Positions 6,397-61,664 of a stretch of DNA of 64,000 nucleotides are shown in pieces. Origin of the DNA: Planctomycetota bacterium (GTDB taxonomy: Bacteria > Planctomycetota > UBA1135 > GCA-002686595); contig JAJDET010000264.1 in NCBI GenBank assembly GCA_029259655.1, positions 1 through 64,000 on the forward strand, written 5' to 3'. The position numbers were made by a program, and so were the translations under genes. Within the stretch, counting starts at the first letter, position 1; every line of letters begins with the position of its first letter. Under the pieces are notes generated by a model. The model made no database searches and was not told the origin of the DNA. It worked only from the letters and a program-made list of their open reading frames with translations.

Positions 6397-6875
6397 GTAC
6401 GGAAGTGAAGTTCGAGGACGGCAACCTGATCGTCACGCGCACCTACGACGCACCGAGAGAGCTGGTGTTCGAAGCCTGGGTCGAGACGAGCAAGGTCCAG
6501 CAGTGGTGGGGATGTGCCGAGTGCACGTCGGTTCGCTCGGAGATCGAGCTGAAGGTCGGCGGCAAGTACGACCATCACATGACGATCGAGGGAGCCGGCG
6601 AAGTACCCGGCTTCGCCACGCTCACGGAGTACGACCCTCCGTCGCGCCTCGCATTCACCTCCACCGGATCGGGCGGGCCCGGTCCCGACGCCGACATGAC
6701 CGTCACGGTCGAGTTCACCGAGGTGGACGGCGGAACACTCGTGCGGCTCGTGCATGCGGGCATCCCGGACATGAAGGTCCAGGGCGATGTCGAGCTGCGC
6801 GAGATCATCCGCGCGGGGTGGACAGCGGCGTTCGGCAAGCTCGGGAAGCTGCTGGGCGCTCCAATGCAGAGCTGA
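6393..6875 (+). CDS. SRPBCC / AHSA1-like (activator of Hsp90 ATPase homolog) domain protein
   Basis: Translation MSTEVKFEDGNLIVTRTYDAPRELVFEAWVETSKVQQWW. ATGA start/stop overlap with the ArsR gene. ArsR+SRPBCC is a common pair. Confidence 0.8.
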   Translation: MSTEVKFEDGNLIVTRTYDAPRELVFEAWVETSKVQQWWGCAECTSVRSEIELKVGGKYDHHMTIEGAGEVPGFATLTEYDPPSRLAFTSTGSGGPGPDADMTVTVEFTEVDGGTLVRLVHAGIPDMKVQGDVELREIIRAGWTAAFGKLGKLLGAPMQS

Positions 6876-6937
6876 CCCGGGGAGCCTCCTCCGGCATCGA
6901 GCTTGCGAATCGCTCCTGACTGGGCGAGATTCTGTGG

Positions 6938-8632
6938 GTGGTCGAGCGAACGATCCCACCGAACGCGCCTCTCCGGAGCGGCAAGCTCGGAGTCGCCGCC
7001 GGGCTCGTCTTCCTCTTCGCGTGCCTGACCGGCATGGCGCCCCCATCGTTCGCGCAGGGCGATCTCCAGGAGCAGGTCGGGCGTTTCCGGACGCAGGCGG
7101 CGACCCAGGAACGTCTCGATCTCGGAAGCTCCATCCTCGCGCGACTCGTCGACGAACCGGATGACGTCCTGGAGGCGGAAGTCCGGCTCGCGTTGGGAAT
7201 CGACCTCGTCGGATTCGAGCGGTTCGCAGAAGCGCGCGAGCACCTGGTGTTCGCGCTGGCGCTGGCTCGCCGCATCGAAGATTCCACGTCCCTTGCCCAC
7301 AGCGCGTGGGAGCTCGGGGTCGTGGCCTTCCGACTCGGCGAGTTCGCCTCGGGGATCGAATGGGCCGCGGAGGGTGCGGACGCCGCCGAGGCGATCGAAC
7401 GACTCGATCTCCTCTGGCGTTGCACCAACATCAAGGGGCTCATCGAGGAGCGCTCCGGCGACTATCCGGCTGCGCTCGACTCGTTCGCTCGCGGCCTCGA
7501 GGCCGCCGAGAAGGCCGGCGATCTCGGAGGGACGGCGACGCTCCACGGCAACATCGGCATCGCGCTGATGAACCTCGGCGACCTCGAGCGGGCCCGCGAT
7601 TCCTTCCTCCGTGCGCGCGAGTTGCAGGTCACGTCCGGCTCCCCATCGGGGTTGCCCTCGACCGTGGCGAACCTCGGAGACGTCAGCTTCCTGCTCGAAG
7701 ACCTGGACGCGGCCTACGAATTCCATGTCGAGGCGTTGCGCCTGCGGGAAGAGCTCGGGTCCGAGGTGGAGCTGGCGCTCTCCTACCACAGCCTCGGAGC
7801 CATTCACTACCAGCGCGGCGAGTACCGCCCGGCGCTGGGTCGTTTCGAACAGGCGCTCGGGCTCCGGCAACGCCTCGGCCTGATCCCCGAGCAAGCGGCG
7901 ACGCTGGCGGCCATGGCCCGCGTGTATGCCGCACTCGACGAGGACGACGAAGCCGCGCAGGCGGTCCAGAAGAGCCTCGAGATCACCGACGACCTCGACA
8001 TGCTGGGACGGCAACTGGGCATCCTCCAGTCGCTCGCAGTCGTCCTCGAGAAGCAGGGCAACCACGCCGAGGCGCTCGAGGCCTATCAAGACTTCTGGGC
8101 GCTCGAGCGCGAGCAACGCTCACGCGAGACTCGTGAACAGTACGCACGGTTCGAGGCCGAGCTGGACTCCAGGGAGAAGGAGCGCCGGATCGCCGCGTTG
8201 ACGCTGGAGGGAGAGCTTCGCGACCTGGCACTCGACAAGCACCGGCTGACGCGCAACTTCCTGCTGGTCGGATCGCTGCTGCTCGTCGTCGTCGCGCTCG
8301 CGGGTTGGAGCGCGTGGGCGGTCCTGCGTCGTACGAACCGGGCCCTGACGCTCGCCAACGTTGCAGTTCGGCAACACAGCGAGGATCTCGAGGCGGCATC
8401 CGAGCGCATCACGCGGCTCGAGGGCCTGCTCCCGATCTGTGCCCAGTGCAAGAGCATCCGAGACGAAGCGGGTGCCTGGCACGCCATCGAGGGCTACTTC
8501 GCGGACCGCGCGCAGGTGTCTTTCACGCACGGCTTGTGTCCGAGCTGCGTGGATGACTATCGCTCGGAAGCTCGACTCGCTCCCCCGCTCCCGAAGGCCG
8601 AGGAGCCCGGGAGCCGGGAATCACGAACGTGA
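6938..8632 (+). CDS. TPR-repeat protein with signal peptide, coiled coil, one TM helix and a C-terminal four-Cys zinc-ribbon-like domain
   Basis: Multiple TPR-like helical repeats. TM helix LLVGSLLLVVVALAGWSAWAVL. C-terminus ICAQCKSIRDEAGAWHAIEGYF...THGLCPSC. Confidence 0.65.
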   Translation: MVERTIPPNAPLRSGKLGVAAGLVFLFACLTGMAPPSFAQGDLQEQVGRFRTQAATQERLDLGSSILARLVDEPDDVLEAEVRLALGIDLVGFERFAEAREHLVFALALARRIEDSTSLAHSAWELGVVAFRLGEFASGIEWAAEGADAAEAIERLDLLWRCTNIKGLIEERSGDYPAALDSFARGLEAAEKAGDLGGTATLHGNIGIALMNLGDLERARDSFLRARELQVTSGSPSGLPSTVANLGDVSFLLEDLDAAYEFHVEALRLREELGSEVELALSYHSLGAIHYQRGEYRPALGRFEQALGLRQRLGLIPEQAATLAAMARVYAALDEDDEAAQAVQKSLEITDDLDMLGRQLGILQSLAVVLEKQGNHAEALEAYQDFWALEREQRSRETREQYARFEAELDSREKERRIAALTLEGELRDLALDKHRLTRNFLLVGSLLLVVVALAGWSAWAVLRRTNRALTLANVAVRQHSEDLEAASERITRLEGLLPICAQCKSIRDEAGAWHAIEGYFADRAQVSFTHGLCPSCVDDYRSEARLAPPLPKAEEPGSRESRT

Positions 8633-9983: not shown

Positions 9984-10580
9984 ATGAGCGCGGTCCGCAG
10001 CCTCTCTCTGGTCATCTCCATCAGCCTTCTTTCCAGCGGATGCCTGGCGCTGGTCAAGGAGTCGTACTACGCGATCCACTCCGACCCCGGTGACGTTCGG
10101 CGTCTGGAGGAGCCCTGGTATCTCGAACGGCGCGGCGCCGAGGTCGCCTCCGCTTCGAGCCTCGTCGGGCTGGACGTCGTCATCTGGGAGCACGCGACCT
10201 ACCCGGTCCTCTCCGGACCGCTGATCGCCTGCGTTCTCCCGGTCGGCGCCGTAGCTTGGATGTGGTACCAACCGTTGGGTCCTGGACCACAGATCTCGTT
10301 CGACGCGCGCGGACCACGGAACGAGCTCTCGATTCGACCCGAGGAGATCCGCCTGCGCCTGACCGATGGAACCCTGGTCTCGCCCTCGGACACCTACATC
10401 GATCGGATGCACTTCCGGACGGCGTTCGAGCTCCCCGGAGAGGAAGAGGAGGAGTTCGAGCTGCTCATCGAAGGGGTATCGATCGACGGAGAGAAAGAGA
10501 CCTTCGGTCCCCTCGCGATCAGGAGAAGGTCCGAGTGGGTATGGACCGTGCTCGACGTCGCGGGAAGGAGCGAGCGATGA
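9984..10580 (+). CDS. hypothetical lipoprotein
   Basis: MSAVRSLSLVISISLLSSGC lipobox. Start chosen downstream of the overlapping VOC gene. Confidence 0.55.
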   Translation: MSAVRSLSLVISISLLSSGCLALVKESYYAIHSDPGDVRRLEEPWYLERRGAEVASASSLVGLDVVIWEHATYPVLSGPLIACVLPVGAVAWMWYQPLGPGPQISFDARGPRNELSIRPEEIRLRLTDGTLVSPSDTYIDRMHFRTAFELPGEEEEEFELLIEGVSIDGEKETFGPLAIRRRSEWVWTVLDVAGRSER

Positions 10581-11619: not shown

Positions 11620-11923
11620 GCTTTTTTCGTGCCCCTCCCGTTCGAGGTGACAAGGCAACAAGGCGGTTCGAACCGTTCGCGGTACCGGTCCGCCCGCACG
11701 ACGATCTGTGACAACCAGGTGAGATCACTAACGAGGCGGTCGACGACCCGTTCGTCGCCGCCCGTAGTTCAACGCCGATCAACGCCCGGGGGCGTGATCG
11801 GCGTGTCGGCCGGGCCGACGGAGAGTGGAGCTGGCTCGAGGGGGAGCTCGCAACGCATCGCGCAATACGCGTCCTCTCCGTCGGCCCGGGCAGTGGGGAG
11901 CCCAAGGGCGCATGGTGCGTGTA

Positions 11924-11998
11924 GTTCAGTGGCGGAGCGGGAGGGTGTGAGCCTCCAGACCAGGGTTCGATTCCCTGCACGCACCCCCATCGCCCGGT
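11924..11998 (+). tRNA. tRNA-His (anticodon GTG) with G-1
   Basis: Manual fold: acceptor GTGCGTG/CACGCAC with an extra 5' G, D-arm GTTC..GAGC, anticodon stem GGAGG/CCTCC with loop GTGTGAG, T-arm CAGGG-TTCGATT-CCCTG. Confidence 0.8.
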
Positions 11999-12015
11999 AG
12001 AACAGGGAGCGGTAG

Positions 12016-12091
12016 CTGAGACGGTGCAAGCGCTGGTTCGAAACACCGGAGACGAGGGTTCGATTCCTTCCCGCTCCGCCCAACAAACGCC
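12016..12091 (+). tRNA. atypical tRNA (best fit tRNA-Phe GAA), possibly a pseudogene
   Basis: Good acceptor GGAGCGG/CCGCTCC and T-arm GAGGG-TTCGATT-CCTTC. D-stem has a mismatch. The only workable anticodon stem is CTGGT/ACCGG with loop TCGAAAC, which places C at position 33. Confidence 0.4.
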
Positions 12092-12098
12092 TCCGTAG

Positions 12099-12174
12099 CT
12101 CAGCCGGCAGAGCAGCGGATTCTTAATCCGAAGGTCGCAGGTTCGATGCCTGCCGGGGGCACCAGCAAAACTCC
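12099..12174 (+). tRNA. tRNA-Lys (anticodon CTT)
   Basis: Acceptor GCCTCCG/CGGGGGC with A73 and CCA. D-arm GCTC..GAGC, anticodon loop TTCTTAA, T-arm GCAGG-TTCGATG-CCTGC. Confidence 0.8.
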
Positions 12175-12193
12175 CTTCCCACTTCCAGGGTGG

Positions 12194-12266
12194 TGTAGCG
12201 GAAGCACGCGAGGCTCTGAACCTCGCAGCCGGGGTTCGAATCCCTGCCCTGGATCCACCACCTCGA
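12194..12266 (+). tRNA. tRNA-Gln (anticodon CTG)
   Basis: U1-A72 acceptor TCCAGGG/CCCTGGA with CCA. Anticodon stem CGAGG/CCTCG with loop CTCTGAA. T-arm CGGGG-TTCGAAT-CCCTG. Confidence 0.8.
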
Positions 12267-14037: not shown

Positions 14038-14328
14038 ATCGTTCGATCCGGACTGCAGCGTGCGCGTCGGGGGAATCTGGAGCCGCTGAATCTACGCGGA
14101 CAATCCGCTACCTAACAAACACCGACCCTCGTATTCCTGCTACGATCCCCCAGAGGCTAGGCGGCATCGTCGCAGCGCTCGAACTCTACGCGGGCCGCAT
14201 CCAGCGGCAATCCGGCCACGAACAGACATTCGAAGAGCGGCCGCGGGTCTCACGCGAGCCGTGGCTACCCGACGCGGCTCGCCCGTCGACAAGCACCTGT
14301 ACATCCGAGACTCCGAAGGGGATCTGCA

Positions 14329-15909
14329 TTGGGCCACGACTACGACGTGATCATCATCGGGAGCGGGTTCGCCGGCTCCATCCTGGCCTCCATCCTCGCC
14401 CGACACGGTGGGAAGGTGGCCGTGATCGACGCGACCTCCCACCCGCGCTACGCGATCGGCGAGTCGACGATCCCCCAGACGTCGCAGATCCTCTCGCTGA
14501 TCTCGCGCAAGTTCGACGTGCCCGAGATCGAGAACATCGGGCTCGGAGCTCCCAAGGGCATCCGCGAGAACATCACCACGAGCTGCGGCATCAAGCGCAC
14601 GTTCGGCTTCGCCTATCACGACCTGGGTCGCGAACACGACCCCCAGCAAGCCCACCAGTTCGGGAACACGTTCCGCGACGAGAACCACCTGTTCCGTCAG
14701 GACATCGATGCCTACCTCGCACAGGTCTCCGTGCGATACGGGGCGGACCTGTTGCTCAACACGCGCGTGCAGGACCTCCAGATCGACGAGGCCGGCGTCA
14801 CGATCACGACATCGACCGGCAAGACCCTGACCGGCCAGTACCTGGTCGACGGCAGCGGCTTCCGCAGCGTGGTCGCCGAGAAGTACGGGCTGCGCGAGGA
14901 CCCCTGCCGCTTCAGACACCGATCGCGCAGCATCTTCACGCACATGATCGACGTGACGCCCTTCGAGGACGTCGTCACCAACCACTGCTCGATCAAGTGG
15001 TCGCAGGGCACGCTCCACCACATCTTTCCGGGCGGCTGGGTCTGGGTGATTCCCTTCAACAACTGGGAGAAGTCCACCAACGACATCATCAGCATCGGTC
15101 TGACGGTCGACCCGGAGATGTACCCCAAGAACCGCGAGATCAGCCCCGAGGAGGAGTTCAGGAACTTCCTCGACGAGCACCTTCCCAGCGCGGCGCTGCA
15201 GTTCCCCAAGGCCAAGGCGGTCCAGACCTGGGTCAGCACCGAACGCTTGCAGTTCTCGTCGTCCAAGAGCGTCGGCACGCGCTTTTGCCTGTTGAGCCAC
15301 GCATCGGGCTTCCTCGACGCGCTCTATTCACGGGGACTCATCAACTCCTGCGAGCTCGTGCGCTCCCTGGCGACCCCGTTGCTGGAAGCGATCAAGGATG
15401 GCGACTGGTCGGATGAGCGCTTCGCGCCGATCGAGGACGTCCACAACCGAGTCCTCGGCTTCGCCGACCGAATCGTCCACTCGTCTTTCGCCTCCTGGAG
15501 CTCCTTCGAGGTCTGGGACTGGGTCGTCCGCATCTGGGCGGTCGCTGTCGGCGTCGCGGAGTCGAACCTGGGCAGCTACCTGATCTCGCGCGATCGCGCC
15601 GACTTCGAGCGGGCAAAGGACCCGCTCTTCTCCGAGTTCGAGCACGCCGGCTTCCGCGCGTTCTTCGAGGCTTCGGAGCCCTTCGTCCTCGACTTCCGTG
15701 ACGGGAAGATCACGGCGAAAGAGGCAGCCGAAGGACTACGAAAGACCATGGAGGCCTACGACTTCCGCATGAAGCTCCCCGACGGAAGCCACTGCACGGA
15801 ATGGGCCATCAAGAACCCGATGACGCGCAACTGGTACATCGGATCGGATGACTGCCGGAAGCGCTGGGAAGCCAAGGAGTCGGACCCGCATCTCATGCAG
15901 CCGGCATAG
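14329..15909 (+). CDS. flavin-dependent halogenase (tryptophan-halogenase family)
   Basis: N-terminal GxGxxG (VIIIGSGFAGS) and the family signature WxWxIP (GGWVWVIPF). TTG start with GAAGGGGA ribosome-binding site. Confidence 0.75.
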   Translation: MGHDYDVIIIGSGFAGSILASILARHGGKVAVIDATSHPRYAIGESTIPQTSQILSLISRKFDVPEIENIGLGAPKGIRENITTSCGIKRTFGFAYHDLGREHDPQQAHQFGNTFRDENHLFRQDIDAYLAQVSVRYGADLLLNTRVQDLQIDEAGVTITTSTGKTLTGQYLVDGSGFRSVVAEKYGLREDPCRFRHRSRSIFTHMIDVTPFEDVVTNHCSIKWSQGTLHHIFPGGWVWVIPFNNWEKSTNDIISIGLTVDPEMYPKNREISPEEEFRNFLDEHLPSAALQFPKAKAVQTWVSTERLQFSSSKSVGTRFCLLSHASGFLDALYSRGLINSCELVRSLATPLLEAIKDGDWSDERFAPIEDVHNRVLGFADRIVHSSFASWSSFEVWDWVVRIWAVAVGVAESNLGSYLISRDRADFERAKDPLFSEFEHAGFRAFFEASEPFVLDFRDGKITAKEAAEGLRKTMEAYDFRMKLPDGSHCTEWAIKNPMTRNWYIGSDDCRKRWEAKESDPHLMQPA

Positions 15910-15964: not shown

Positions 15965-16348
15965 CTACTCTTCCGCGAGCACGCGCTGGATCGCGAGGAT
16001 GATCTCCGACTTCCCGTAGTCGTGCCCGGGGATCTTCACGCGGACCTCACCGTTCGCGTCGAACCCCACGAGCCCGTGCCGCTGTTCGGCGAAGCCGTAG
16101 GACTCGATCTCGGCGGTGCGCCGGTTCGTCTCCTCGGCCGGGATGACGTTGAAGTCCACATGCCCCTCGTACTCCTTCGCGAGCTCGCCCACGGCGGCCT
16201 CGACTTTCACGCAGAAGGGTCATGTGTCGGCGATCATGAAGTAGCGGATCTCCGGGAGCGCAGCGGGCTCCGCGTCCAGCTTCGAGGCGGCGGACTGGCA
16301 TGCCCCGAGGAGCGCGATCCCGAGCAGGGCGGCGATGGCGGTTCTCAT
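15965..16348 (-). CDS. thioredoxin-fold lipoprotein with an in-frame TGA at the first position of the redox motif (T-U-P-F-C): candidate selenoprotein
   Basis: MRTAIAALLGIALLGACQS...IRYFMIADT-[TGA at 16220-16222]-PFCVKVEAAVGELAKEY... is continuous in one frame. The ORF track splits it at the TGA. Beta1-CxxC-alpha1 thioredoxin architecture. Confidence 0.55.
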
Positions 16349-16417
16349 GCCCAAGAGCCTACACCGACACCCGTCGCGACGTCCGAAGGGGGCGCTTCCT
16401 TAATGTAGTCTCCCCCG

Positions 16418-17617
16418 ATGGCCGCTCCGCTCCCCGCGCGCCTCGCCCTGGCCCTCGGCTCCGTCGCGGTGGTCGTCGGCGTGGGCTGGGTCGTCCTGGC
16501 GCGATCCGAGCCGGACGAGGTACCCACGGTCGAGCTCGTCGACACGCGCCTGGAGCGGGAGAGATTGCACGCGGCTCGCCTGGCCGCAGGCGGCGCGCGC
16601 GAGGTCCCGGACGACCTGGCCGAGCTCGGTCGCGACTTCGCACAGCAATTGCGCGAGCTCGCGAACGAGGAGGTGGTGAACGCTTTCTTCCCGGCCGTGA
16701 CGTCGGCGCTCTACGAGCCCGCCCCTGGCGTGTTCTTCCGCCTGGTTCCCGATACCACGGCCTGGAACGCCTTCGCGGAGCACCCCGACGAAGGCTTCCA
16801 CCGAGCGACGAACGACCGCGGCATGCGGGAGGACGACTCCACGATCGGCGCGGCACCGGACGTCTGCTGGCTCGTGATGGGCGACTCCCACGTCTCCAGC
16901 GTGTGCGGGAACGACGAGTCCTTTCCCAACCTGCTCGAGGCGACCCTCGGCGCGGAGGACCGGGCGCAGAGCGTCCGGGTGTGGAACGTCGCGCACGGCG
17001 CCTACGCCCTCGCGAACTACCTCGGGACCTTCGTCGGGTACGGAGACCTGGAGCCGGACGGCGTCGTCGTGGTGGTGTACGGCGGGAACGACTTCGACCT
17101 CGACCTGTGGCGTTACGTGTACGGGCAGGAGAGTCCACCGAGGATCTCCTACGCGCTGGAGAAGCTCTTCACCGTTCGGCCGAACGGGCGCGGGCTGTTC
17201 GCGCAGGAGATCGTCCAGGCCTGTCGATTCCTCGACGAGCCCGAGCTCGAGGAGACCGCGGCGAACGTCGCGGCGGCGACCTGCATCGAACTCGCGCGGC
17301 AGAGCTCCGAACGCGACGCGGCGTTCCTGGTCGTGTACCTCCCGCCCCCCTCGCGCGGCCAACCCGACCTGTACCGGGAGCTCTTGGAGAACGGCATGGC
17401 GAGGGTCGGAGCGCCAGCCGAGGGCCTCGCGAGCAGCGACCGTGTCGCCGACGCGTTCCTGGCACACCTCGCCGCCCACGGCGTGCGGGCGCTCGACCTG
17501 CGCCCGCGCTTCGCCCGCGAGGAGACGGGCCTCTACTGGAACACCGACCTGCACCTGAACCTCGCGGGCCACGAGGTCGTCGCGGAAGAGACACGCGCCG
17601 CGATCGACGAGCTCTAG
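16418..17617 (+). CDS. SGNH/GDSL-family hydrolase with an N-terminal membrane anchor
   Basis: LVMGDSHV (GDS block), GGND, and DLHLNLAGH (catalytic His) motifs. Confidence 0.7.
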   Translation: MAAPLPARLALALGSVAVVVGVGWVVLARSEPDEVPTVELVDTRLERERLHAARLAAGGAREVPDDLAELGRDFAQQLRELANEEVVNAFFPAVTSALYEPAPGVFFRLVPDTTAWNAFAEHPDEGFHRATNDRGMREDDSTIGAAPDVCWLVMGDSHVSSVCGNDESFPNLLEATLGAEDRAQSVRVWNVAHGAYALANYLGTFVGYGDLEPDGVVVVVYGGNDFDLDLWRYVYGQESPPRISYALEKLFTVRPNGRGLFAQEIVQACRFLDEPELEETAANVAAATCIELARQSSERDAAFLVVYLPPPSRGQPDLYRELLENGMARVGAPAEGLASSDRVADAFLAHLAAHGVRALDLRPRFAREETGLYWNTDLHLNLAGHEVVAEETRAAIDEL

Positions 17618-35530: not shown

Positions 35531-38500
35531 TCAGAGAGGGTCGCCGGAGAGTACCCATCCCGCCCAGTCGCGCAGCTCGGCACCTTCGTCGCGCAGTGCG
35601 CGCTTGGCCTGCCACAGAGCCTCGACCTTCGGCACGCCCTCGAGCCAGAGCTTGGCGTAGAAGAGCTCCATGAGACGCCGCGTCATGGCGTCGTCGACCT
35701 TCCAGAGGCTCGTGATCGCCGTTCGCACGCCCGCTGCGTGGAGAGCTGCCTGCAGCGACTGGACGCCCTGCCCCGCGCGCCGGATGCCGACGCCCGTCTC
35801 GCACGCGCTGAGCACGGCGAGCTCGCACGCCGAGAGATCGACACCGGCCAGCTCCTCCGCGGTCAGGATGCCAGGTACGCGGCCCTGGGAATCGCGGCCG
35901 CGGTTGGCACCGGAGAAGGCGAGACCGCAGAGGGTCATCGGCGCGAAACCGGTCGCCGTCGCACGCGGGTCGAGCGCGTTCCACGGATCGGATTCCCGCT
36001 CCGAGTCGGCGTCGAGGGTCGACGGAACGCTGTCCGGTGCGAACCAGCCGTGGGTCGCGACGTGCAGGTACGACTTGCCGGGCGCTTGCGCGTGAAAGCC
36101 GGCCTTGGTCGCGTACTCGCCGAGGAGGACGAGAGGCCGGCGCTCGAAGGCCTCCTCGAAGAGAGCGCCGACCGCGTTCGCCTCCGCGCGCGTTTCGGCG
36201 AGCGGAGCGAACTTCGTCTGCGCCCCCGCGCTGCGCGTTCCGTGATCGACGGGAGCCGAAGACTCCCCGTCCGGGGAGTGGAGGCCGGTCCCGTCGAACG
36301 CCGCGTCTCCCAGGACCAGGAGCGCCGGCTCGGGCTCGGATCGGCGGGACGACACGACGAGGCGCGCGAACGAGACCTCGATCACGATCCGGTGGCGGTC
36401 ACCGACCCGCACGAGGCGCCCGCCCTCCGGCGGCCGGTCGAGCGGCAACGCGTCCAGCGGCACGACGTGGAGAAAGTCGTCCAGGCAGACGTAGAGGGTC
36501 GTGCCTTCCTCGAGCAGGTTGAGCACCGGGTCGAGGACGTACGCACGCAGGCGCCTCCCGGCCTCGTTCAGGTCGGGCTGGGGCGCGCCCGGATGTCCGA
36601 CACCCAGGCCGCGCGAGACCATCGGCTCCCCGGCGGCTTCGCGCCAGAGCTCCGCGAGCTCCTCGATCCGGGCCGCCGATCCGAGATCCACCTCGATCAG
36701 GGATCCGTCCGGACGCAGAACGTGTGCCGCCATGACCTCGCCCACGGAGCGGAACTCTCGCCATGCGTGGTGACGGAGGAACCCGACCGCGACGGAGCCG
36801 TCGGGCAACGCGCGCGCCACGTCGTCACTCTCGACGGAGCCGGCGAAGACGCCGCTCGCTACGCGATCGTCGCGTACCTCGCGTTCCAGCATGTCGCGCT
36901 CGCGCACGACCTCGAAGATCTCGGCGGCGTACTCCCCCAGCGTCTCGCCCCCACGAGGTCCACCCGCGACCAGGTCGGAGAGTCGCGCGCGCTGAGCGGC
37001 GACACGCTCGGACTGCGAGCTCGCGACCAGGCGACAGCCGGCCATGTTGGAGACCGCGCGCAGCGTCTCGGCCAGATCGAAACGCGCTTCCGCGAGACCG
37101 TCTGCACTGGCCCCACGGGTCAGGTAGCGCACGATCCTGTGGCGGTGCGACTCCCACCTCGCGATCTCCCGCGCTTCGCGAGGTGAGAGCGCCCACGCGA
37201 TCTCGAGCTGACGCCGAACGCCGCGCGCCAGATCCCGTCCGAGCCGGTGCGCTTCCTCGGTCTCCCCCTGTTCCAGTAGGATCAGAGCAAGGTTCTGGCG
37301 GGATCCGAGGAGGTCCGGGTGGTCCTCGGGCAACGTCCGCTCGCGAATGGCGAGGACCTCCGCCAGGAGCGCGCGCGCACGATCGACCTCGCCGATGTTG
37401 CGAAGCGTGATGGCGAGGTTTTCCCGTGCGCCCAGGAGGTTCGGGTGACCTGGGGGAAGCGTCCGCTCGAAACCCTCGAGCACGGACTCCTCCAGCTCCC
37501 GTGCTGCCGCGTGCTGCCTCATCCGCTTCAACAGACCCGCGAGTATCCCGCGGGCACGCAGGAGATCGGGATCGTCCCCGGACCGCGACTGCTCGATGCC
37601 GGCGAGCCCCGCCTCGAGGAGCCGGCGGGCCGCGTCGCGCTCGCCGAGATCGACCAGGATCCCGCTGAGATTGATGCGAGTCCGGAAGAGGTCCACGTGT
37701 TCACTCGGGAGCGTGCGCTCATAGCCGGCGAGTGCGCGTTCCGTCATGGCCCGCGCGGCGACGAGGTCGCCGATCGCGCGCAGGGTCAATCCCAGGTTCG
37801 CGTACGCCGGGAGCCGGCGCGCTTCGTCATTTCCCGCACGCTCGAGCACCGCGAGAGCCGATTCCTGCAGCGCGCGCGCGCGTGACAGATCGCCCAGCGC
37901 CTTGACGGTGTCCGCGAGATCGAGCCGCGCGCCGATAGCGAGCGGATGATCGCCCGCGACGTCGCGTTCGTACCCGGCGAGCACGCTCTCCTGCAATTCG
38001 AGAGCTTCGGGGAGCTGGCCAAGCTCGAAGAGAGTCGCTCCGAGCTTCGCGCGAACGCCGAGGATATCGGGATGCCCCGCAGGAAGGGTCTGCTCGCATG
38101 CGGCGAGAATCGACTCCTGGAGGTCGCGCGCGCGGTCCAGCTCTCCGAGCTTCAGGAGCGTCGTGGAGAGGTTCAGTCTCAGGCGGAGGACCATCGGGTT
38201 CTCGTCGGGCAAGGCCTCGCCCAGATCCGCCAGCGCCCGCTCCTGCAACCTGAGCGCTCCGTCGAGATCGCCCAGCGCGCGCATCGTCAACGCGACGTTC
38301 CCGCGTATGCGCGCGAGGCTGGGGTCGCCAGGACGGTACGCGCGCTCGGCGCTGGAGAGCAGCCCGTCCTCGAGCGCGAGTGCACCCTGGAGATCGCCCA
38401 GACTCTTCAGGGTGAGGGCCAGGTTCTCCCGCGCGCTGAGCGACATCGGGTGCTCTTCGCCGAGCGTGCGCACGAACCCGTCGAGCGTCGCCTCCTGCAA

Positions 38501-39046
38501 CGGACGAGCGCCGGCGAAGTCGCGGAGCTCGTACAGGGTGGCCGCAAGGTTCGAGCGAGCCCGGAGCAGATCGGGGTCGTCGTCGGGACGCGTGCGCTCG
38601 TAGTTCGCGAGGATCTCCTCCTCGAGCCCGCGTGCGCCGTGGAGGTCGCCGCTGGACGCCAGCGCCGTGGCGAGGATCGTCTTCGCGCGCAGGAGCGAGG
38701 GGTCGTCGGGGGGATGCAAGCGCTCGCGGTGCGAGACGATGCGAGCGAATGCCTCGCGGGCTCCCTCGAGGTGCCCGACGTTCCACGCGAGCACGCCCGC
38801 GCGCCAGAGCAACTCGAAAGCCTCGCCACTTTGCTCGTCGAGGGGGATCGCCTCCAGCGTCTCGAGCGCCGCTGCAAGGTCTGCACGCGCCGCTGCGGCG
38901 TCACCGGCTCCCAGCGCGCTCGCCGCACGCTCGAGCACGCGCTCGACGGAGGACAGGTCGACCGGGTGCTCGTCCGTCGCGCCTTCTTGACCGATCAGGG
39001 GTCCCGAGACCGCGAGGGCGATCAGAACAACGTTCGCGAGGGCCAT
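35531..39046 (-). CDS. secreted TPR-repeat protein with a C-terminal CHAT (caspase-like) protease domain
   Basis: Signal peptide, then >15 TPR units. C-terminal YLHVATHG (His) and AVLSACETG (Cys) form the CHAT catalytic dyad. Confidence 0.85.
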   Translation of the reverse strand: MALANVVLIALAVSGPLIGQEGATDEHPVDLSSVERVLERAASALGAGDAAAARADLAAALETLEAIPLDEQSGEAFELLWRAGVLAWNVGHLEGAREAFARIVSHRERLHPPDDPSLLRAKTILATALASSGDLHGARGLEEEILANYERTRPDDDPDLLRARSNLAATLYELRDFAGARPLQEATLDGFVRTLGEEHPMSLSARENLALTLKSLGDLQGALALEDGLLSSAERAYRPGDPSLARIRGNVALTMRALGDLDGALRLQERALADLGEALPDENPMVLRLRLNLSTTLLKLGELDRARDLQESILAACEQTLPAGHPDILGVRAKLGATLFELGQLPEALELQESVLAGYERDVAGDHPLAIGARLDLADTVKALGDLSRARALQESALAVLERAGNDEARRLPAYANLGLTLRAIGDLVAARAMTERALAGYERTLPSEHVDLFRTRINLSGILVDLGERDAARRLLEAGLAGIEQSRSGDDPDLLRARGILAGLLKRMRQHAAARELEESVLEGFERTLPPGHPNLLGARENLAITLRNIGEVDRARALLAEVLAIRERTLPEDHPDLLGSRQNLALILLEQGETEEAHRLGRDLARGVRRQLEIAWALSPREAREIARWESHRHRIVRYLTRGASADGLAEARFDLAETLRAVSNMAGCRLVASSQSERVAAQRARLSDLVAGGPRGGETLGEYAAEIFEVVRERDMLEREVRDDRVASGVFAGSVESDDVARALPDGSVAVGFLRHHAWREFRSVGEVMAAHVLRPDGSLIEVDLGSAARIEELAELWREAAGEPMVSRGLGVGHPGAPQPDLNEAGRRLRAYVLDPVLNLLEEGTTLYVCLDDFLHVVPLDALPLDRPPEGGRLVRVGDRHRIVIEVSFARLVVSSRRSEPEPALLVLGDAAFDGTGLHSPDGESSAPVDHGTRSAGAQTKFAPLAETRAEANAVGALFEEAFERRPLVLLGEYATKAGFHAQAPGKSYLHVATHGWFAPDSVPSTLDADSERESDPWNALDPRATATGFAPMTLCGLAFSGANRGRDSQGRVPGILTAEELAGVDLSACELAVLSACETGVGIRRAGQGVQSLQAALHAAGVRTAITSLWKVDDAMTRRLMELFYAKLWLEGVPKVEALWQAKRALRDEGAELRDWAGWVLSGDPL

Positions 39047-39106
39047 CTCGTCCTGCTCCTGCCGCGATTCTATCCGCGAGCACGAGAACTCGCGGGGAAC
39101 CGGATC

Positions 39107-40699
39107 CTAGCGAGCCGAGACGAGCACGACGAGCAGGAGCAAGTTGGTCACCGCGTGCGCAACGATCGCCCCGCCGAGTCCCCGTCGCGACCGGATCGCG
39201 AAGTAGGCCGCACCGGCAACCGCGCCGGCGAGCCAGCGCTCGTGCGCGAGGCCGAAGAGCACCGAGGACACCGCGCACACCAGTGGCGCGAGGCGACCCC
39301 GCGCCCCGCCCAGACGGTCGACCAGGTAGCCGCGGAACGCCAGCTCCTCGACCAGAGGCACGACGAGCGCAGACCCCGCGAATCTCGCGACGAGCCAGCC
39401 GACGGTCTCGGCGTCGAGCACTCCCCGTACCCGGGCGAGGTGTTCCGGCGGCACGAGCGGCTCGCCCGCGAGGCCGGCGCTCGCGAGCCAGAACACGAAC
39501 ACCGCAGCGCCGCAGAAGAGCGCCGGCGCGCTCGGGCGAAGATCGATCTTCGAGTAGCGCCGTCGGTAGGCGAACACCACCAGCAAGGGCGCGAGGAACC
39601 GCAGCCACTCGACGTCACCCGGCCGCGCGCTGGCCGTCGCCAGGAGCAGGCCGGCGCCCAGAAAGACGACGAGGGGCAAGAGGAACGTCGATCCGTCGCC
39701 CGGCGGAACGCGATCGGACGCGGGCTCGCGGCGGAAGAAGCTCGCGCGCCGCGCGAGCACCGCCAGCCCGATCGCAAGTCCGCAGAAGAGCACCCACCCT
39801 GCACGCGAGTGGAAGGCACCTACCGCGAGCTCGGGCGAGACCGTGTCACCGATCAGCACGAGCGCTGCGATGCGGACGACGTTCGCGCCGAACGAGAGGA
39901 GTGTCCCCAGCGGCAAGAGCAACAGGGCGTGCGGAAAGCGAAGCTCGTCTCGTCGCAACCAGAGGTGCACGCAGAGAAACACCCACAGGAGGCCCATACC
40001 CTCATAGCCGGAACACCCGGCGCCGATCCTCACGACGAAGTCCGGTGTTCCAACCGCCAGCTCGTCCACGTCGACGAGAACGTCACCCGTGGCGATGCCC
40101 AGGACCACGGCGACGCTCCTCAGCGTGAGCGCGCCGAGCATGCGCCACAAGGGCGCGTCCCCCGCGCTTCCGGCGGAATAGGCGGCGAGGCCGACGACCA
40201 CGCCCGTCGCCATGGCGCACGTGCGCCGGCGCACGGGGAACAAGAGCGCGCGGACCGGTACCGCCAGCGCGAGGATGGAGAGCGCTGTCGAGGCCCCGGT
40301 CGCCGCCCAGACGAGGAGCAGGAACCAGGTCGCGAGCGTGTCCCCGCCACGCGCGTCGAAGAGGTGCCAGGTGAGCGCGCTGAAGACCGTCACGGCCGCG
40401 ACGTGCGCGACGAGGAGCTGCCGGTTCGGTGTCTCGGACGACCTCGCATCCAGGAACGCACGCAGGTCCGTCCTCCCCGACGTCGCGGCCCACGCGGCAC
40501 CGACCGCGAGCGCAGCCGGGAACGCGACCGCGCTGTGTGCGAGGAGTCGCGCCCAGACGTGCGAGCTGGCGCGCAGCGCTGCGGTGTCGAACACGCTCGT
40601 GAGCGCGATCCCCTCGAGCGCGAGGATCGTGCACGCGAGCGCGAGTCGCAGTGCTCCCCCACGCTCCGCGGAGTGCACGAGGACGGGGGGGGCTTCCAC
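39107..40699 (-). CDS. exosortase-family transpeptidase fused to a CPBP/CAAX (Abi) intramembrane protease; XrtE-like
   Basis: N-terminal half carries exosortase motifs (Cys in RIGAGCSGYEG, Asn/Arg in FGANVVRIAAL). C-terminal half carries CPBP motifs EELAFRGY, FGLAHE and HAVTN. Confidence 0.7.
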   Translation of the reverse strand: MEAPPVLVHSAERGGALRLALACTILALEGIALTSVFDTAALRASSHVWARLLAHSAVAFPAALAVGAAWAATSGRTDLRAFLDARSSETPNRQLLVAHVAAVTVFSALTWHLFDARGGDTLATWFLLLVWAATGASTALSILALAVPVRALLFPVRRRTCAMATGVVVGLAAYSAGSAGDAPLWRMLGALTLRSVAVVLGIATGDVLVDVDELAVGTPDFVVRIGAGCSGYEGMGLLWVFLCVHLWLRRDELRFPHALLLLPLGTLLSFGANVVRIAALVLIGDTVSPELAVGAFHSRAGWVLFCGLAIGLAVLARRASFFRREPASDRVPPGDGSTFLLPLVVFLGAGLLLATASARPGDVEWLRFLAPLLVVFAYRRRYSKIDLRPSAPALFCGAAVFVFWLASAGLAGEPLVPPEHLARVRGVLDAETVGWLVARFAGSALVVPLVEELAFRGYLVDRLGGARGRLAPLVCAVSSVLFGLAHERWLAGAVAGAAYFAIRSRRGLGGAIVAHAVTNLLLLVVLVSAR

Positions 40700-40709
40700 G
40701 GCGTCGCCG

Positions 40710-40922
40710 TCAGGTCTGGGGCGGTGCCGTCTCCGACCGGGAGGACCTCGACCGGATCGCCGGCGCGATCAGGAGCAGGGCCGCGATCACGAGGACGATC
40801 GCCTCCCGCGACCCGCTCGGGTCGATCTCGGGAACGATGGCCTTCGTCAGGTGCCTCCGGCCGAGCTGTGCCGACACGGGAGACGCCAGGAGAAAGGCCG
40901 CCAGGAGGATGCGGCGGAACAT
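40710..40922 (-). CDS. VPEID-CTERM sorting-signal mini-protein (candidate exosortase substrate)
   Basis: Signal peptide MFRRILLAAFLLASPVSA. Only ~11 residues then VPEID. Then TM IVLVIAALLLIAPAI and basic tail RSRSSRS. Ends 10 nt upstream of the exosortase gene. Confidence 0.6.
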   Translation of the reverse strand: MFRRILLAAFLLASPVSAQLGRRHLTKAIVPEIDPSGSREAIVLVIAALLLIAPAIRSRSSRSETAPPQT

Positions 40923-41054: not shown

Positions 41055-42338
41055 CTACCGAGCCAGACGGAAGCCCGCGAACATCCAGCGCTGGTGTGGG
41101 TAGAAGAAGTTGCGGTACGTCCGGCGCAGGTGACTCTCCGGCGTGACGCAGCACCCGCCGCGCAGGACGAGCTGGTTGATCATGAACTTGCCGTTGTACT
41201 CGCCGAGCTCGCCCTCGAAGGGCTCGTAGCCGGGGTAGGGCGCGTAGGGGCTGCGCGTCCACTCCCACACGTCGCCGAAGAGCTGTCCGAGCGAATCGCC
41301 CTCGGGCGCGGAGGACAACCGACGCGGGTGGTACGCACCGGACTCCAGGAACGTCCCGGTCGCAGCGTGTCCCTCGGCCGCGCGCTCCCACTCGAGCTCC
41401 GACGGCAGCCGGCAGCCGGCCCACGTGGCGTAGGCGTCGGCCTCGTAGTAGCTGACGTGGCAGACCGGCTCGCCCGGGTCTATATCGCGAAGCCCGCCGA
41501 GCGTCATCGCGCTTCCCGTGTCGGGTTCCCAGTAGAGCGGTGCGCGCCAGTCCTCCCGCTGCACATGGTCCCAGCCGTCCGCGAGCCAGAGCTCCGAGCG
41601 TCGGTAGCCTCCGTCGTCGACGAAAGCGCTGTACTCGCCGCACGTGACCGGACGCGAGGCGAGCTCGAACGGCTCGAGTCGCGCGGTGTGCCGCGGGCGC
41701 TCGTTGTCGTAGGCGAACCCGCTCCCCTCGTGGCCGATCTCCACGTCCCCACCGTCGAACGAGCGCCACTCGACCGCCGGGACGGCCACCACGGGAATCA
41801 GCGTGCCGGTCGGCGAGGGCCGGCGCCCGTAGGCGGGGCGCATCGGGTTCCCCGCGAGCACGTGCTTCACGTCCATGAGCAGGAGCTCCTGGTGCTGCTG
41901 CTCGTGGTGCATGCCGATGGTCAGGACCGGCGCCACACTCTCGACGCACTCGCGCGAGCCGTCCTCGAGGAGCGCGGTCATCGCCTCGTCGACGTGACGG
42001 CGGTAGTCGCGCACTTCGTCCACGGTCGGCCGCGACAGGAGCCCGCGGCGCGAGCGAGGGAAAGGGTCTCCCAGCGACTGGTAGTAGGAGTTGAAGATCG
42101 CCGAGAAGCGCTCGTCGAAGAGGGAGTACTGCGCGCCGCTCCGCTCGAGCACGAGGGTCTCGAAGAACCACGTGACGTGGGCCAGGTGCCACTTGGTCGG
42201 ACTGACGTCGGGCATGGTCTGCACCACCATGTCCTCCGTCTCGAGAGGCTCGCATAGCGCTTCGGTCACGGACCGCACGCGCTCGTAGGCACGAAGCAGC
42301 TCGCCGCGCTCCTGAGTGATCGGAATCGAGAGAGTCAT
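41055..42338 (-). CDS. egtB: EgtB-like sulfoxide synthase (DinB_2 + FGE-sulfatase domains), ergothioneine/ovothiol-type
   Basis: N-terminal DinB-like HLAHVTWFFE...HHEQQHQELL iron-binding motifs plus a C-terminal FGE-like domain (WEWT...PYPGY). Confidence 0.7.
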   Translation of the reverse strand: MTLSIPITQERGELLRAYERVRSVTEALCEPLETEDMVVQTMPDVSPTKWHLAHVTWFFETLVLERSGAQYSLFDERFSAIFNSYYQSLGDPFPRSRRGLLSRPTVDEVRDYRRHVDEAMTALLEDGSRECVESVAPVLTIGMHHEQQHQELLLMDVKHVLAGNPMRPAYGRRPSPTGTLIPVVAVPAVEWRSFDGGDVEIGHEGSGFAYDNERPRHTARLEPFELASRPVTCGEYSAFVDDGGYRRSELWLADGWDHVQREDWRAPLYWEPDTGSAMTLGGLRDIDPGEPVCHVSYYEADAYATWAGCRLPSELEWERAAEGHAATGTFLESGAYHPRRLSSAPEGDSLGQLFGDVWEWTRSPYAPYPGYEPFEGELGEYNGKFMINQLVLRGGCCVTPESHLRRTYRNFFYPHQRWMFAGFRLAR

Positions 42339-42449
42339 GGTCTTTCGTCGTCGCGGAGGGTCTCCGGAACACCTGTCGGCAGATGGGGTCGGTTGCGAGC
42401 GACGAGTCTAGCGAAGCTGCGCTGCATGTCTTGACCTACAATCCGCCGG

Positions 42450-43421
42450 ATGAGCCCTCTCGCGATGCTTCTTGCCTCACTCCGGAAGGAACCCGACCGC
42501 GCCGCCGCGACGGGCTTCGTCATCAGCCTGGCTATCGGCTGTGGCAAGGTTGGGGACGAGCCGGACGGACCGGGGCGACTCGAGAGCTCGGGCGGGATGG
42601 AGCTCGTGCTCGTCCCCGCAGGCGAGTTCCTGATGGGATCCAGGGACGCCGGCATGCACCGGGAGCAAGAGCTCCCGCGCCACCGAGTCGTCGTCACCCG
42701 CCCGTTCTACATCGGCGTGACGGAAGTCACGGTCGGTCAGTTCGCGGAGTTCGTCGAGGCGACCGACTATCGCACCGAGGCCGAACGCGACCCGCAGGGC
42801 GGCTTCGGCTTCGACCTCGGCACGGGCTCGCCCCTCCAGACCGGGGGACTCTCGTGGCGTGACCCGGGCTTCGAGCAGACGAACGAGCACCCGGTCGTGC
42901 AGGTCAGCTGGATCGACGCGGAGGCGTTCTGCCAGTGGCTCTCCGAGCGCGACGATCGTCGCTACCGCCTCCCCACGGAAGCCGAGTGGGAGTACGCGGC
43001 TCGCGCGGGGACAACGACGCGCTGGTTCTTCGGCGAAGACCCTTCGGAGCTCTCCGAGTTCGCGAACATCGCAGACGCCTCGCTTCCGGCTGCCTTCCCC
43101 GAAGTCGACTGGGCGGCGGAATGGGACGACGGGCACGCGTTCACGTCCCCGGTCGGCCGCCGTCGGGCCAATCCATGGGGACTCCACGACGTGATAGGCA
43201 ACGTCTGGGAATGGTGCGCCGACTGGCACGACGCCGACTACTACGCGGCTTCGCCGGAGAGGGATCCACAGGGACCCGACGAGGGGCGCATGCGCGCGGT
43301 TCGCGGGGGTGGCTGGTACGACCCCGTGCAGCGCACGCGCTCTGCGCAGCGCGCCTGGTTCTCTCCGGTCTTCCGCTACTGCCAGCTGAGCGGATTCCGG
43401 GTCGTGTGCGAGGTCCAGTAG
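42450..43421 (+). CDS. formylglycine-generating-enzyme (FGE/SUMF1) family lipoprotein
   Basis: Lipobox AIGCG. MVLVPAGEFLMGS...HPVVQVSWIDAEAFCQWL...RLPTEAEWEYAARAG is typical FGE-sulfatase. Confidence 0.8.
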   Translation: MSPLAMLLASLRKEPDRAAATGFVISLAIGCGKVGDEPDGPGRLESSGGMELVLVPAGEFLMGSRDAGMHREQELPRHRVVVTRPFYIGVTEVTVGQFAEFVEATDYRTEAERDPQGGFGFDLGTGSPLQTGGLSWRDPGFEQTNEHPVVQVSWIDAEAFCQWLSERDDRRYRLPTEAEWEYAARAGTTTRWFFGEDPSELSEFANIADASLPAAFPEVDWAAEWDDGHAFTSPVGRRRANPWGLHDVIGNVWEWCADWHDADYYAASPERDPQGPDEGRMRAVRGGGWYDPVQRTRSAQRAWFSPVFRYCQLSGFRVVCEVQ

Positions 43422-49789: not shown

Positions 49790-49908
49790 GCTCGACGCGG
49801 ATTCGCGCACAACGGCACCGCGGACGCCGACGGAGCACTTTCTCGGCTTTCGTTGAGGCCGCCGATACCGTTCGGCGCACGCTGAAGTGAAGCGCCTGGA
49901 GCCTCCCA

Positions 49909-51024
49909 ATGATCGCCGCCCTTCTCCTCGCCGCAGGCCCGCTCGTCCCCCATCTGTCGGACCCTCCGTCCAGGACCGAACCCGCCCTGCGCGGACTCGA
50001 TCCCGTGCTGCTCTGCGAGGAGAGCGCGGAGACTCCGGGTCGCCAGGACCTGCAGGTCACGCACGGCCGCTTCACCTACTGCTTCTCCGGGGCAGAGACG
50101 CGCGTGCGTTTCCTCGACGACCCCGAGCGCTTCGGCATCCAGTGGGGCGGCGGCTGCGGCGCGATGGGTCCGCTCTCCGGAATCGGGAGCCCCGAGCGCT
50201 GGGCCGTCCACGCCGGCCGTATCTACATCTTCGCCTCGGACGGTTGCCGCGAGGGTTTCCTGGACGCGCCCGAGCGCTTCGTGGTCGCGCCGGCCGAGCC
50301 CCCGACCTTCCCGGAAGAAGAAGGTGAGGTGCGGTGGAAAGCTGGAGCAGCCATGCTCCTGCAAGCGGTCCGCGCGCACGGTGGCGTCCAGGCGATCGAC
50401 GCCCCGCGCGCCCTCAGGCTCGTCTACCAGGGGACGCAGGACGACTGGACGCACCGGATCGAGCTCGTCTTCACGCGCGATGCGCTCGAGCGCAGCTCCA
50501 TCTGGACTCCGCCCGCGGACGGGGCTGCGAGAGAGGTCACGCGGTGGGTGCTGGCGGAATCCGCCTTCGTCGACGAGGGCGGAGCTGTCTTCCCGGTAAC
50601 GAGCCCGGATCAGGTTCTCGACCTGCGTCGCTTCGCGCACAGAGAGCCGATCGCGCTCCTGTGGGCAAGTGCCGGCTCTGACCTCCTCGCCGCGTGGACC
50701 GGCACGAGCAAGCTCCCCGGCAATCCGGGGGTCCGGGTCGTGGACGTCATCGTCCACCACGCCGGCCTCGTGACCACGCTCCACCTCGATCCGGAGTCTT
50801 GCAAGATCCTCGGGCTCTCCTGGCGTGGCCGCGCGATCGACGGCGTGACGCGCGACGTCGTCGAGGTCTTCACCGACTGGCGCGACGTCGGCGGTGCGCT
50901 CATCCCCACCGGACGGACGGTGATGGTGGATGGAGAGGTGACCCCCTCCCTGGCACTCACCTGGAACACCGCCGAGCTCCTGGCCCGGGTTCCGGCTCAC
51001 TCCTTCGAACGAGGTGTGCGATGA
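49909..51024 (+). CDS. secreted protein with two YHS/TRASH-like metal-binding modules
   Basis: RFTYCFSGAETRVRFLDDPERF and RIYIFASDGCREGFLDAPERF resemble YHS domains (YYFCS..C...F..DPEKY). Confidence 0.45.
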   Translation: MIAALLLAAGPLVPHLSDPPSRTEPALRGLDPVLLCEESAETPGRQDLQVTHGRFTYCFSGAETRVRFLDDPERFGIQWGGGCGAMGPLSGIGSPERWAVHAGRIYIFASDGCREGFLDAPERFVVAPAEPPTFPEEEGEVRWKAGAAMLLQAVRAHGGVQAIDAPRALRLVYQGTQDDWTHRIELVFTRDALERSSIWTPPADGAAREVTRWVLAESAFVDEGGAVFPVTSPDQVLDLRRFAHREPIALLWASAGSDLLAAWTGTSKLPGNPGVRVVDVIVHHAGLVTTLHLDPESCKILGLSWRGRAIDGVTRDVVEVFTDWRDVGGALIPTGRTVMVDGEVTPSLALTWNTAELLARVPAHSFERGVR

Positions 51025-61562: not shown

Positions 61563-61664
61563 CGGACTCCTCTTCTTCGAGGCGCCCCGCGGAGAGAGTT
61601 CGGAACGTGGCGCTACCCTCGGATGGTAGCCGCTCGTCGGAGCGGGAACGGTTGCCGGTCGTTC

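Follow-up and report, generated by a model that had tools for sequence, protein, structure and literature searches.

A probable selenocysteine-containing thioredoxin-fold lipoprotein of Planctomycetota that standard annotation reports as a fragment

The minus strand of the 64-kb stretch of DNA analysed here, referred to below as the window, very probably encodes at positions 16348..15965 a prelipoprotein of 127 residues whose codon UGA43 is read as selenocysteine (Sec), giving a thioredoxin-fold oxidoreductase of the cell envelope. Its specific redox role is less certain than this overall reading. We classify the protein and its relatives as a new family among the bacterial UxxC thioredoxin-fold selenoproteins with an intragenic SECIS element, possibly overlapping with the GOS group 'Trx-like 3'. 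Lipoprotein anchoring, the loss of cis-Pro and an apparent predominance of Sec over Cys forms are its less common features.

The complete gene (15965..16348, minus strand) comprises 127 codons including Sec43, from ATG at 16348-16346 to the stop codon TAG at 15967-15965, and is conserved over its full length in homologs. A preliminary description of this DNA had proposed one reading frame leading from a lipoprotein signal through a TGA, and the frame is indeed continuous: it reads MRTAIAALLGIALLGAC-QSAASKLDAEPAALPEIRYFMIADT, then TGA at 16222-16220, then PFCVKVEAAVGELAKEY and on to a terminal AEE, with this TGA as the only internal one; the residues between the TGA and the TAG are PFCVKVEAAVGELAKEYEGHVDFNVIPAEETNRRTAEIESYGFAEQRHGLVGFDANGEVRVKIPGHDYGKSEIILAIQRVLAEE. 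ORF finders and gene callers report, instead of the whole gene, a C-terminal fragment of 81 amino acids with a GTG start (15965..16210, minus strand), as had been noted before, and the mechanical ORF list contains a second piece of 44 amino acids (16220..16354, minus strand). Database entry P0001 is a 75-residue version of the C-terminal fragment. The window contains 458 TGAs in frame that are flanked on both sides by 25 or more open codons. Six of them passed relaxed composition thresholds, and the TGA at 16222-16220 has the cleanest coding composition of those six on both flanks (GC3 0.93/0.95, GC2 0.53/0.38). Of the remaining five, at least four are antisense to confident genes, and none is protein-like. 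Together with the conservation of its flanks, this composition scan indicates that the internal TGA is not a chance feature. A filtered read-through scan, from which low-complexity off-frame matches were removed, found no second selenoprotein in the window.

The N-terminus carries a lipoprotein signal peptide, MRTAIAALLGIALLGA, followed by the lipobox Cys (16298..16348, minus strand). Inspection of the sequence reveals an n-region with Arg2, a hydrophobic core and the lipobox L-G-A-C, in which Cys17 is encoded at 16300-16298. We looked for a positive residue at the N-terminus, a hydrophobic core and a lipobox of the form [LVI][ASTVI][GAS]-C within the first ~35 residues; the window protein has all of these features of a signal peptidase II substrate, so that processing and lipidation are predicted. 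The strict lipobox expression also matches 12 of the 13 Sec forms whose N-terminus is complete and 19 of the 23 Cys forms.

The remainder of the protein, approximately residues 32-127 (15968..16255, minus strand), forms a thioredoxin-fold domain with the succession β1 (IRYFMIA), α1, β2 (VDFNVIP), α2, β3 (GLVGF), β4 (VRVKIP) and α3. This β-α-β-α-β-β-α core, with a CxxC-type motif at the N-terminus of helix 1, assigns it to the thioredoxin-fold superfamily. The redox motif U-P-F-C (Sec43 and Cys46; 16211..16222, minus strand) aligns with the N-terminus of helix α1, which bears out the earlier proposal that the TGA takes the place of the first Cys of a CxxC-type motif. The predicted structure used for comparison is that of a Cys-form homolog 33% identical to the window protein; in this model the CxxC residues 49-52 come directly before a helix spanning residues 51-67. 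Two further sites are conserved throughout the family. His91-Gly92 (16073..16078, minus strand) is located just before β3, is invariant in the alignment of 36 sequences and, as placed by the Cys-form model, probably corresponds to the cis-Pro loop of thioredoxin. Gly108-His109 (16022..16027, minus strand), part of a P-G-H motif, follows β4 directly; its Gly is invariant and its His is present in at least 90% of the aligned sequences. Judged from the model, the family is a divergent minimal thioredoxin fold that has a glutaredoxin-like CP[YF]C or UPFC motif and no cis-Pro.

These features suggest how the protein might be made and how it could work. A hairpin 18-40 nucleotides past UGA43 would offer the apical G-U of its small loop to SelB-GTP-Sec-tRNA(Sec), leading to insertion of Sec at UGA43 in place of termination, as the comparative evidence described below suggests. 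The signal peptide would direct export, after which Cys17 of the lipobox would be lipidated and become the new N-terminus. A short linker rich in Ala and Pro would then tether the thioredoxin-fold domain of ~95 residues to the membrane on its extracytoplasmic side. Sec43, at the exposed N-terminal position of U-P-F-C, would be the attacking nucleophile and Cys46 would resolve the intermediate to a selenenylsulfide, so that the protein may alternate between a selenol/thiol and a selenenylsulfide state. The most likely role, going by fold and motif, is that of an envelope thiol/selenol-disulfide oxidoreductase acting as reductant, by analogy to the membrane-tethered envelope oxidoreductases of the TlpA, ResA and Etrx type.

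A different use of the same site has to be weighed against this role. Here the protein would still be a selenoprotein, but Sec43, Cys46 and the two conserved His would build a metal or metalloid site (for instance for Cu, Zn, Hg, or selenite/arsenate chemistry) instead of serving general disulfide exchange. The invariance or near invariance of the His-Gly before β3 and the Gly-His after β4 in 36 sequences is compatible with such a site, and thioredoxin homology would place both His in loops flanking the active site. One Cys form, P0072, has a His-rich tail (GHSHGDHGHKH), and there is a precedent in the Sco-type thioredoxin-fold proteins, which bind copper through two Cys and one His. On the other hand, a CxxC motif with Pro at its second position is typical of redox-active thioredoxin and glutaredoxin sites, no metal-homeostasis genes are conserved nearby, and neither His is absolute: the His of His-Gly is Ser in one Sec-form paralog, and that of Gly-His is Ser in the Cys forms P0118 and P0151. 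We regard a metal or metalloid site as unlikely, although it is the main rival as to function. A related proposal, which we consider quite improbable, is that this undescribed family of very small envelope-anchored selenoproteins contains Sec by default and that the HG/PGH pair, having replaced the cis-Pro loop, forms together with Sec and Cys a specialised site for a metal or metalloid or for a new surface redox reaction, and not for generic disulfide exchange.

Evidence for Sec at position 43 comes from the homologs. A search among 5.8 billion proteins returned seven relatives, all of 74-82 amino acids and covering only the C-terminal 60%, which suggested that they are truncated in the same way as the window gene. 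In all six independent homologs whose contigs were read through the junction (61-68% identity in the C-terminal part), TGA was found at the same codon, in the context ...[IV]RY[FY][MV]IAD[AT]-TGA-PFC..., and a lipoprotein signal peptide lies upstream wherever the N-terminus is present. When one genome per GTDB species was scanned, with the narrower A2 alignment as query because the alignment of 36 sequences was too diverse, 11 further loci of 45-62% identity emerged, nearly all labelled as Planctomycetota metagenome-assembled genomes (MAGs), and all 11 carry the TGA. These nearest relatives suggest that the window DNA, too, comes from a planctomycete. Similarly, a profile search against 1.84 billion cluster representatives yielded 134 matches, among them ~106-115 short fragments that start just past the motif and 12 full-length Cys forms. 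Three of the most distant fragments, read at the DNA level, proved to be Sec forms with the motifs SEG-TGA-MKC, NPH-TGA-PFC and IPG-TGA-PFC.

The last of these belongs to a low-GC organism whose public record has Trp at the TGA: at L029 (NCBI GCA_044232415.1, contig JAZHCE012047116.1, 443-844) the protein P0107 is given with Trp where the DNA reads TGA, evidently because the translation in the record used a code in which TGA means Trp. Another locus, L025 of the Planctomycetota MAG ALOHA_ZT_45, contains two paralogs ~3 kb apart (6590-7042 and 10001-10249), both with a Sec-TGA; their motifs are U-P-P-C and U-P-M-C, and the upstream copy has Ser-Gly for the conserved His-Gly. In total, all 21 homologs read at the DNA level have TGA at the identical codon. 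Their protein identities range from 33 to 72%, and the assemblies from which they come are independent, with 11 Planctomycetota MAG loci and the one low-GC organism among them.

The second half of the pattern is provided by relatives that use Cys. At the column of the TGA, 23 full-length relatives have Cys, in the motifs CPYC (17 sequences), CPFC (two), CPDC (two), CPLC (one) and CMAC (one), and this is the alignment with Cys homologs that the preliminary description had called for. Between independent homologs the codons on either side of the TGA vary synonymously and the amino acids are conserved, from which it follows that both flanks are translated in this frame. An operational criterion for a new selenoprotein is an in-frame TGA conserved in at least two homologous sequences together with the existence of Cys homologs (PMC1088965); the window family offers 21 distinct TGA genes and 23 Cys forms whose CxxC aligns with UxxC.

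Bacterial Sec insertion also requires attention to the RNA downstream of the UGA. The preliminary description had pointed to the interval 16219-16170 as the place to search for a SECIS element, and a SECIS-like hairpin lies within it (16180..16202, minus strand): CGAG-GC-CGCC-[GUG]-GGCG-AG-CUCG folds locally with a minimum free energy (MFE) of -12.1 kcal/mol and leaves GUG unpaired. The apical GUG is at 16192-16190, 27 nucleotides after the UGA, and the upper stem pairs 16196-16193 with 16189-16186. The published bSECIS model asks for an apical loop of 3-9 nucleotides with G in one of its first two positions, an upper stem of 4-16 base pairs, a distance of 16-37 nucleotides between UGA and loop, and an MFE of at most -7.5 kcal/mol (PMC13188914, Fig. 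2A). The window hairpin agrees with all four (GUG loop, CGCC/GGCG stem, 27 nucleotides, -12.1 kcal/mol). In this 68% GC DNA, however, ~19% of ordinary in-frame codons in window genes pass crude SECIS criteria as well, so the hairpin alone is not strong evidence; the strictest form of these criteria was passed by 12 of 20 family members.

Comparison across the family is more telling. In every one of the 21 Sec forms, even in those with no more than 33-38% identity, GUG is found exactly 27 nucleotides past the UGA, and it sits at the apex in all 20 sequences folded singly. The three apical pairs are formed in all 20, and double changes occur at five of the six stem pairs, a result that none of 500 shuffles reached; this covariation became clear only once three distant members had been added. 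The low-GC member, for example, has the stem GACCAU/AUGGUC where others have GCCGC/GCGGC. The lower stem differs in register between lineages, which is why RNAalifold recovered only the apex, as a 3-bp consensus from 17 sequences. The constraint is also visible in the coding sequence. Degenerate codons that encode an invariant amino acid use the identical codon in four of four cases inside the hairpin compared with 11 of 31 elsewhere (close set, p = 0.026), and at codon +10 all Sec forms have Val-GUG, whereas 22 of the 23 Cys forms have Ile, Leu or Met. The sole exception among the latter, P0080, retains the AAV signature and looks, by its sequence, like a recent convert from Sec to Cys. No SECIS model in Rfam matches the window hairpin, as is to be expected given that bacterial SECIS elements differ greatly between families (PMC13188914).

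A full-length product could in principle also arise if the UGA were read through by a near-cognate tRNA (Trp, Cys or Arg) or by inefficient termination with RF2, the hairpin acting as a stimulator and the product being free of selenium. Hairpins 3' of stop codons can stimulate read-through, and selA, selB, selD and a tRNA-Sec are all absent from the 64-kb window and from ~170 kb of sequence at related loci, as would suit a product made without Sec. Complete sets of Sec-insertion genes have been reported in several Planctomycetes (PMC4807772). We consider selenium-free read-through very unlikely, as the TGA coincides exactly with the catalytic Cys of the homologs, the diagnostic Sec/Cys pattern. 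Moreover, a change of one nucleotide to TGC or TGT would give Cys efficiently, yet 21 lineages retain TGA, and an apical G-U loop at a fixed 27 nucleotides fits the SelB-type SECIS model and not a generic roadblock.

One in-frame stop in one assembly would ordinarily point to a pseudogene, and gene callers treat the gene as such, but a nonsense mutation or a base-call error in a gene for a Cys-type thioredoxin-like lipoprotein is effectively refuted. The preliminary description would have taken a plain nonsense mutation in orthologs as a sign of decay; instead 21 distinct genes, obtained from independent samples by independent assemblers, share the TGA, with identities of 33-72% that exclude copies of one sequence. 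Purifying selection acts on either side of it, the gene has no other disruptions, and a second assembly of this organism (L014) has the identical sequence. Equally refuted for the window are a reassigned TGA (genetic code 4 or 25), for which the Trp deposited in the GCA_044232415.1 record might speak, and a division into two genes, a 42-residue lipopeptide and an independent 81-residue protein, for which gene callers find start codons: TGA ends 23 of the 34 confident window genes (TAG 11, TAA 0; window GC 67.6%) as well as the family genes of L003 and L010 and so is not reassigned, and the called starts vary between homologs in position and type (MKVE, MGEL, VGEL, MAAV) and, according to the structural model, would cut the fold after β1 and remove the active site.

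With Sec insertion as the preferred reading, the question arises how the family relates to known selenoproteins. With Cys substituted for Sec, the window protein and 18 further members were run against NCBIfam 20.0 and Pfam; none of the 19 reached a curated cutoff. UxxC forms of thioredoxin and glutaredoxin (PF00085 and PF00462) have been catalogued already (PMC13188914, Table 1). They share with the window family the thioredoxin fold, the position of Sec as first residue of UxxC at the N-terminus of helix 1, a SECIS element inside the ORF just downstream, and the existence of Cys homologs; the CP[YF]C-type motif is, in addition, the classic glutaredoxin motif. They differ in being cytoplasmic, whereas the window family is predicted to be exported and lipid-anchored, and the latter also lacks WCGPC, cis-Pro (replaced by His-Gly) and the glutathione-binding motifs TVP and GG, and its Sec forms appear dominant. 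The window protein scores 13.1-13.6 bits against the PF00085 cutoff of 23.5, with UPFC/CPYC as motif and His-Gly at the expected cis-Pro position, and 15.4-16.1 bits against the PF00462 cutoff of 22.9, which no member reached (best E 3.8e-4). With regard to the glutaredoxin motif alone there is agreement, UPFC in the window and CPYC in 17 of 23 Cys forms, while HG and PGH stand in place of TVP and GG.

Thioredoxin-fold selenoproteins outside the cytoplasm are less uncommon than the preliminary description had supposed, since extracytoplasmic UxxC proteins of the DsbA-like, DsbG-like and thiol:disulfide interchange types were predicted earlier (PMC13188914, Table 1). These groups (PF01323, NF041057 and PF13098) resemble the window family as secreted or periplasmic UxxC thioredoxin-fold proteins, likewise at the level of prediction. 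They differ from it in that no HMM match is significant and in that the window family consists of a minimal domain of ~95 residues, lipid-anchored instead of soluble, without the helical insertion of DsbA or the dimerisation domain of DsbG/DsbC. Cys proteins of similar topology such as TlpA, ResA, StoA and CcmG/DsbE possess cis-Pro and extra TlpA-type elements and are usually encoded in cytochrome-maturation or Msr operons; pneumococcal Etrx is a membrane-anchored thioredoxin-family lipoprotein of the Cys type. Compared to the TlpA/ResA type, the window family has Sec, HG for cis-Pro, no match to Redoxin/AhpC-TSA models and no conserved operon.

The best NCBIfam match is SaoT (NF040730), a small thioredoxin-like (seleno)protein with UxxC. 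It amounts to 17-18 bits against a cutoff of 65, over ~30 residues around the motif, and the Sao gene neighbourhood is absent here. The NCBIfam selenoprotein models, including GOS_C (NF045500), HUIPC (NF047660), VPGU (NF041383), UXX-star and DsbG-like (NF041057), mostly gave no match at E <= 1, and the rest matched single members with E > 0.05. Neither GOS_C nor "Grx-like" is a candidate for the identity of the family, both being clearly different proteins. Closer in description is 'Trx-like 3', one of the loose groups defined in the 2008 GOS survey, a marine-enriched UxxC group with weak similarity to cd02950 that is listed with 212 Sec and 183 Cys sequences (PMC2398784, Table 2). The two share, going by that description, the distant UxxC motif, weak domain similarity, a high ratio of Sec to Cys forms and a marine occurrence; the signature peptides of the window family are not found in the portion of Dataset S1 searched, a portion that holds no Trx-like sections (PMC2398784). 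Should the two be the same, the family would have been seen before and never characterised or modelled.

A 2026 review counts 119 prokaryotic selenoprotein families and subfamilies, most of them tied to NCBIfam or Pfam models (PMC13188914), and recognition of the window family would add one to these ~119. A selenoprotein of the UxxC thioredoxin-fold class is unsurprising in itself, as new families in this class are found regularly. A literature search found no mention of a UPFC selenoprotein or of such selenoproteins in Planctomycetota, and the database entries for the family are all unnamed or "hypothetical protein" and have no Pfam domain. The family is centred on Planctomycetota, and its Sec forms appear to outnumber the Cys forms by a wide margin (~9 Sec-type clusters for each Cys-type one). 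Due to this predominance, databases hold it only as fragments of 70-80 amino acids: public protein collections contain more than 100 family clusters, almost all of them 70-80-residue "hypothetical" proteins without the active site, and one record with a wrong Trp. The window gene is a clean and well-supported case in which standard annotation destroys a real gene. It would extend the documented use of selenium in Planctomycetota, including marine lineages. The family further provides natural Sec/Cys pairs and a compact SECIS whose constraint on the protein shows directly in the Val-GUG at +10; families with a Sec majority are rare and can help in addressing why selenium is kept.

The genes around the selenoprotein gene are a halogenase-like FAD enzyme (14329-15909, plus strand), which is convergent with it, a divergent SGNH/AlgX-like gene (16418-17617), and, nearby, a 547-residue membrane protein and a Band-7 gene. 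None of these neighbours has a counterpart at any other family locus, and the selenoprotein gene therefore looks free-standing. The halogenase to which the preliminary description drew attention is present; its adjacency is probably coincidental and probably without relevance, as it is absent from the other family loci. An IscS/NifS-like cysteine desulfurase, scoring below equivalog cutoffs, occurs near the family gene in three loci only, directly upstream in L001 (212-1378) and about 4 kb downstream in L023 (14242-15408) and L024 (~14175-15386). It looks like a generic housekeeping gene, and its proximity is probably a coincidence too.

Elsewhere in the window, a tight cluster of four tRNA genes (11914-12257, plus strand) comprises His-GTG, Phe-GAA, Lys-CTT and Gln-CTG and no tRNA-Sec. 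A YHS-domain protein (49891-51024, plus strand) scores 42.9 bits against the cutoff of 70 for the NCBIfam model 'YHS domain-containing (seleno)protein'; being a Cys form (WGGGCGAMG instead of GxU), it is uninformative about Sec decoding in this genome. The gene at 41055-42407 (minus strand) combines DinB_2 and FGE-sulfatase domains and reaches 567 bits for ergothioneine EgtB (cutoff 360) and 357 for the selenoneine synthase SenA (cutoff 420); an ORF with an FGE-sulfatase domain only (42435-43421, plus strand) adjoins this EgtB-like gene divergently. The segment 43848-49789 contains a DUF4886 gene and an AMP-binding enzyme (both minus strand) followed by an MBOAT protein, a PP-binding carrier protein and a second DUF4886 gene (all plus strand), which suggests a module for acylation of a surface polymer similar to Dlt or alginate acetylation. 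A very large TPR-CHAT protein of 1191 amino acids is encoded beside an exosortase/Rce1-like fusion membrane protein (35531-40768, minus strand). Finally, a full-length pyruvate:ferredoxin oxidoreductase with POR_N, POR, EKR and 4Fe-4S domains (57984-61664, minus strand) hints at an anaerobic or facultative metabolism of the host.
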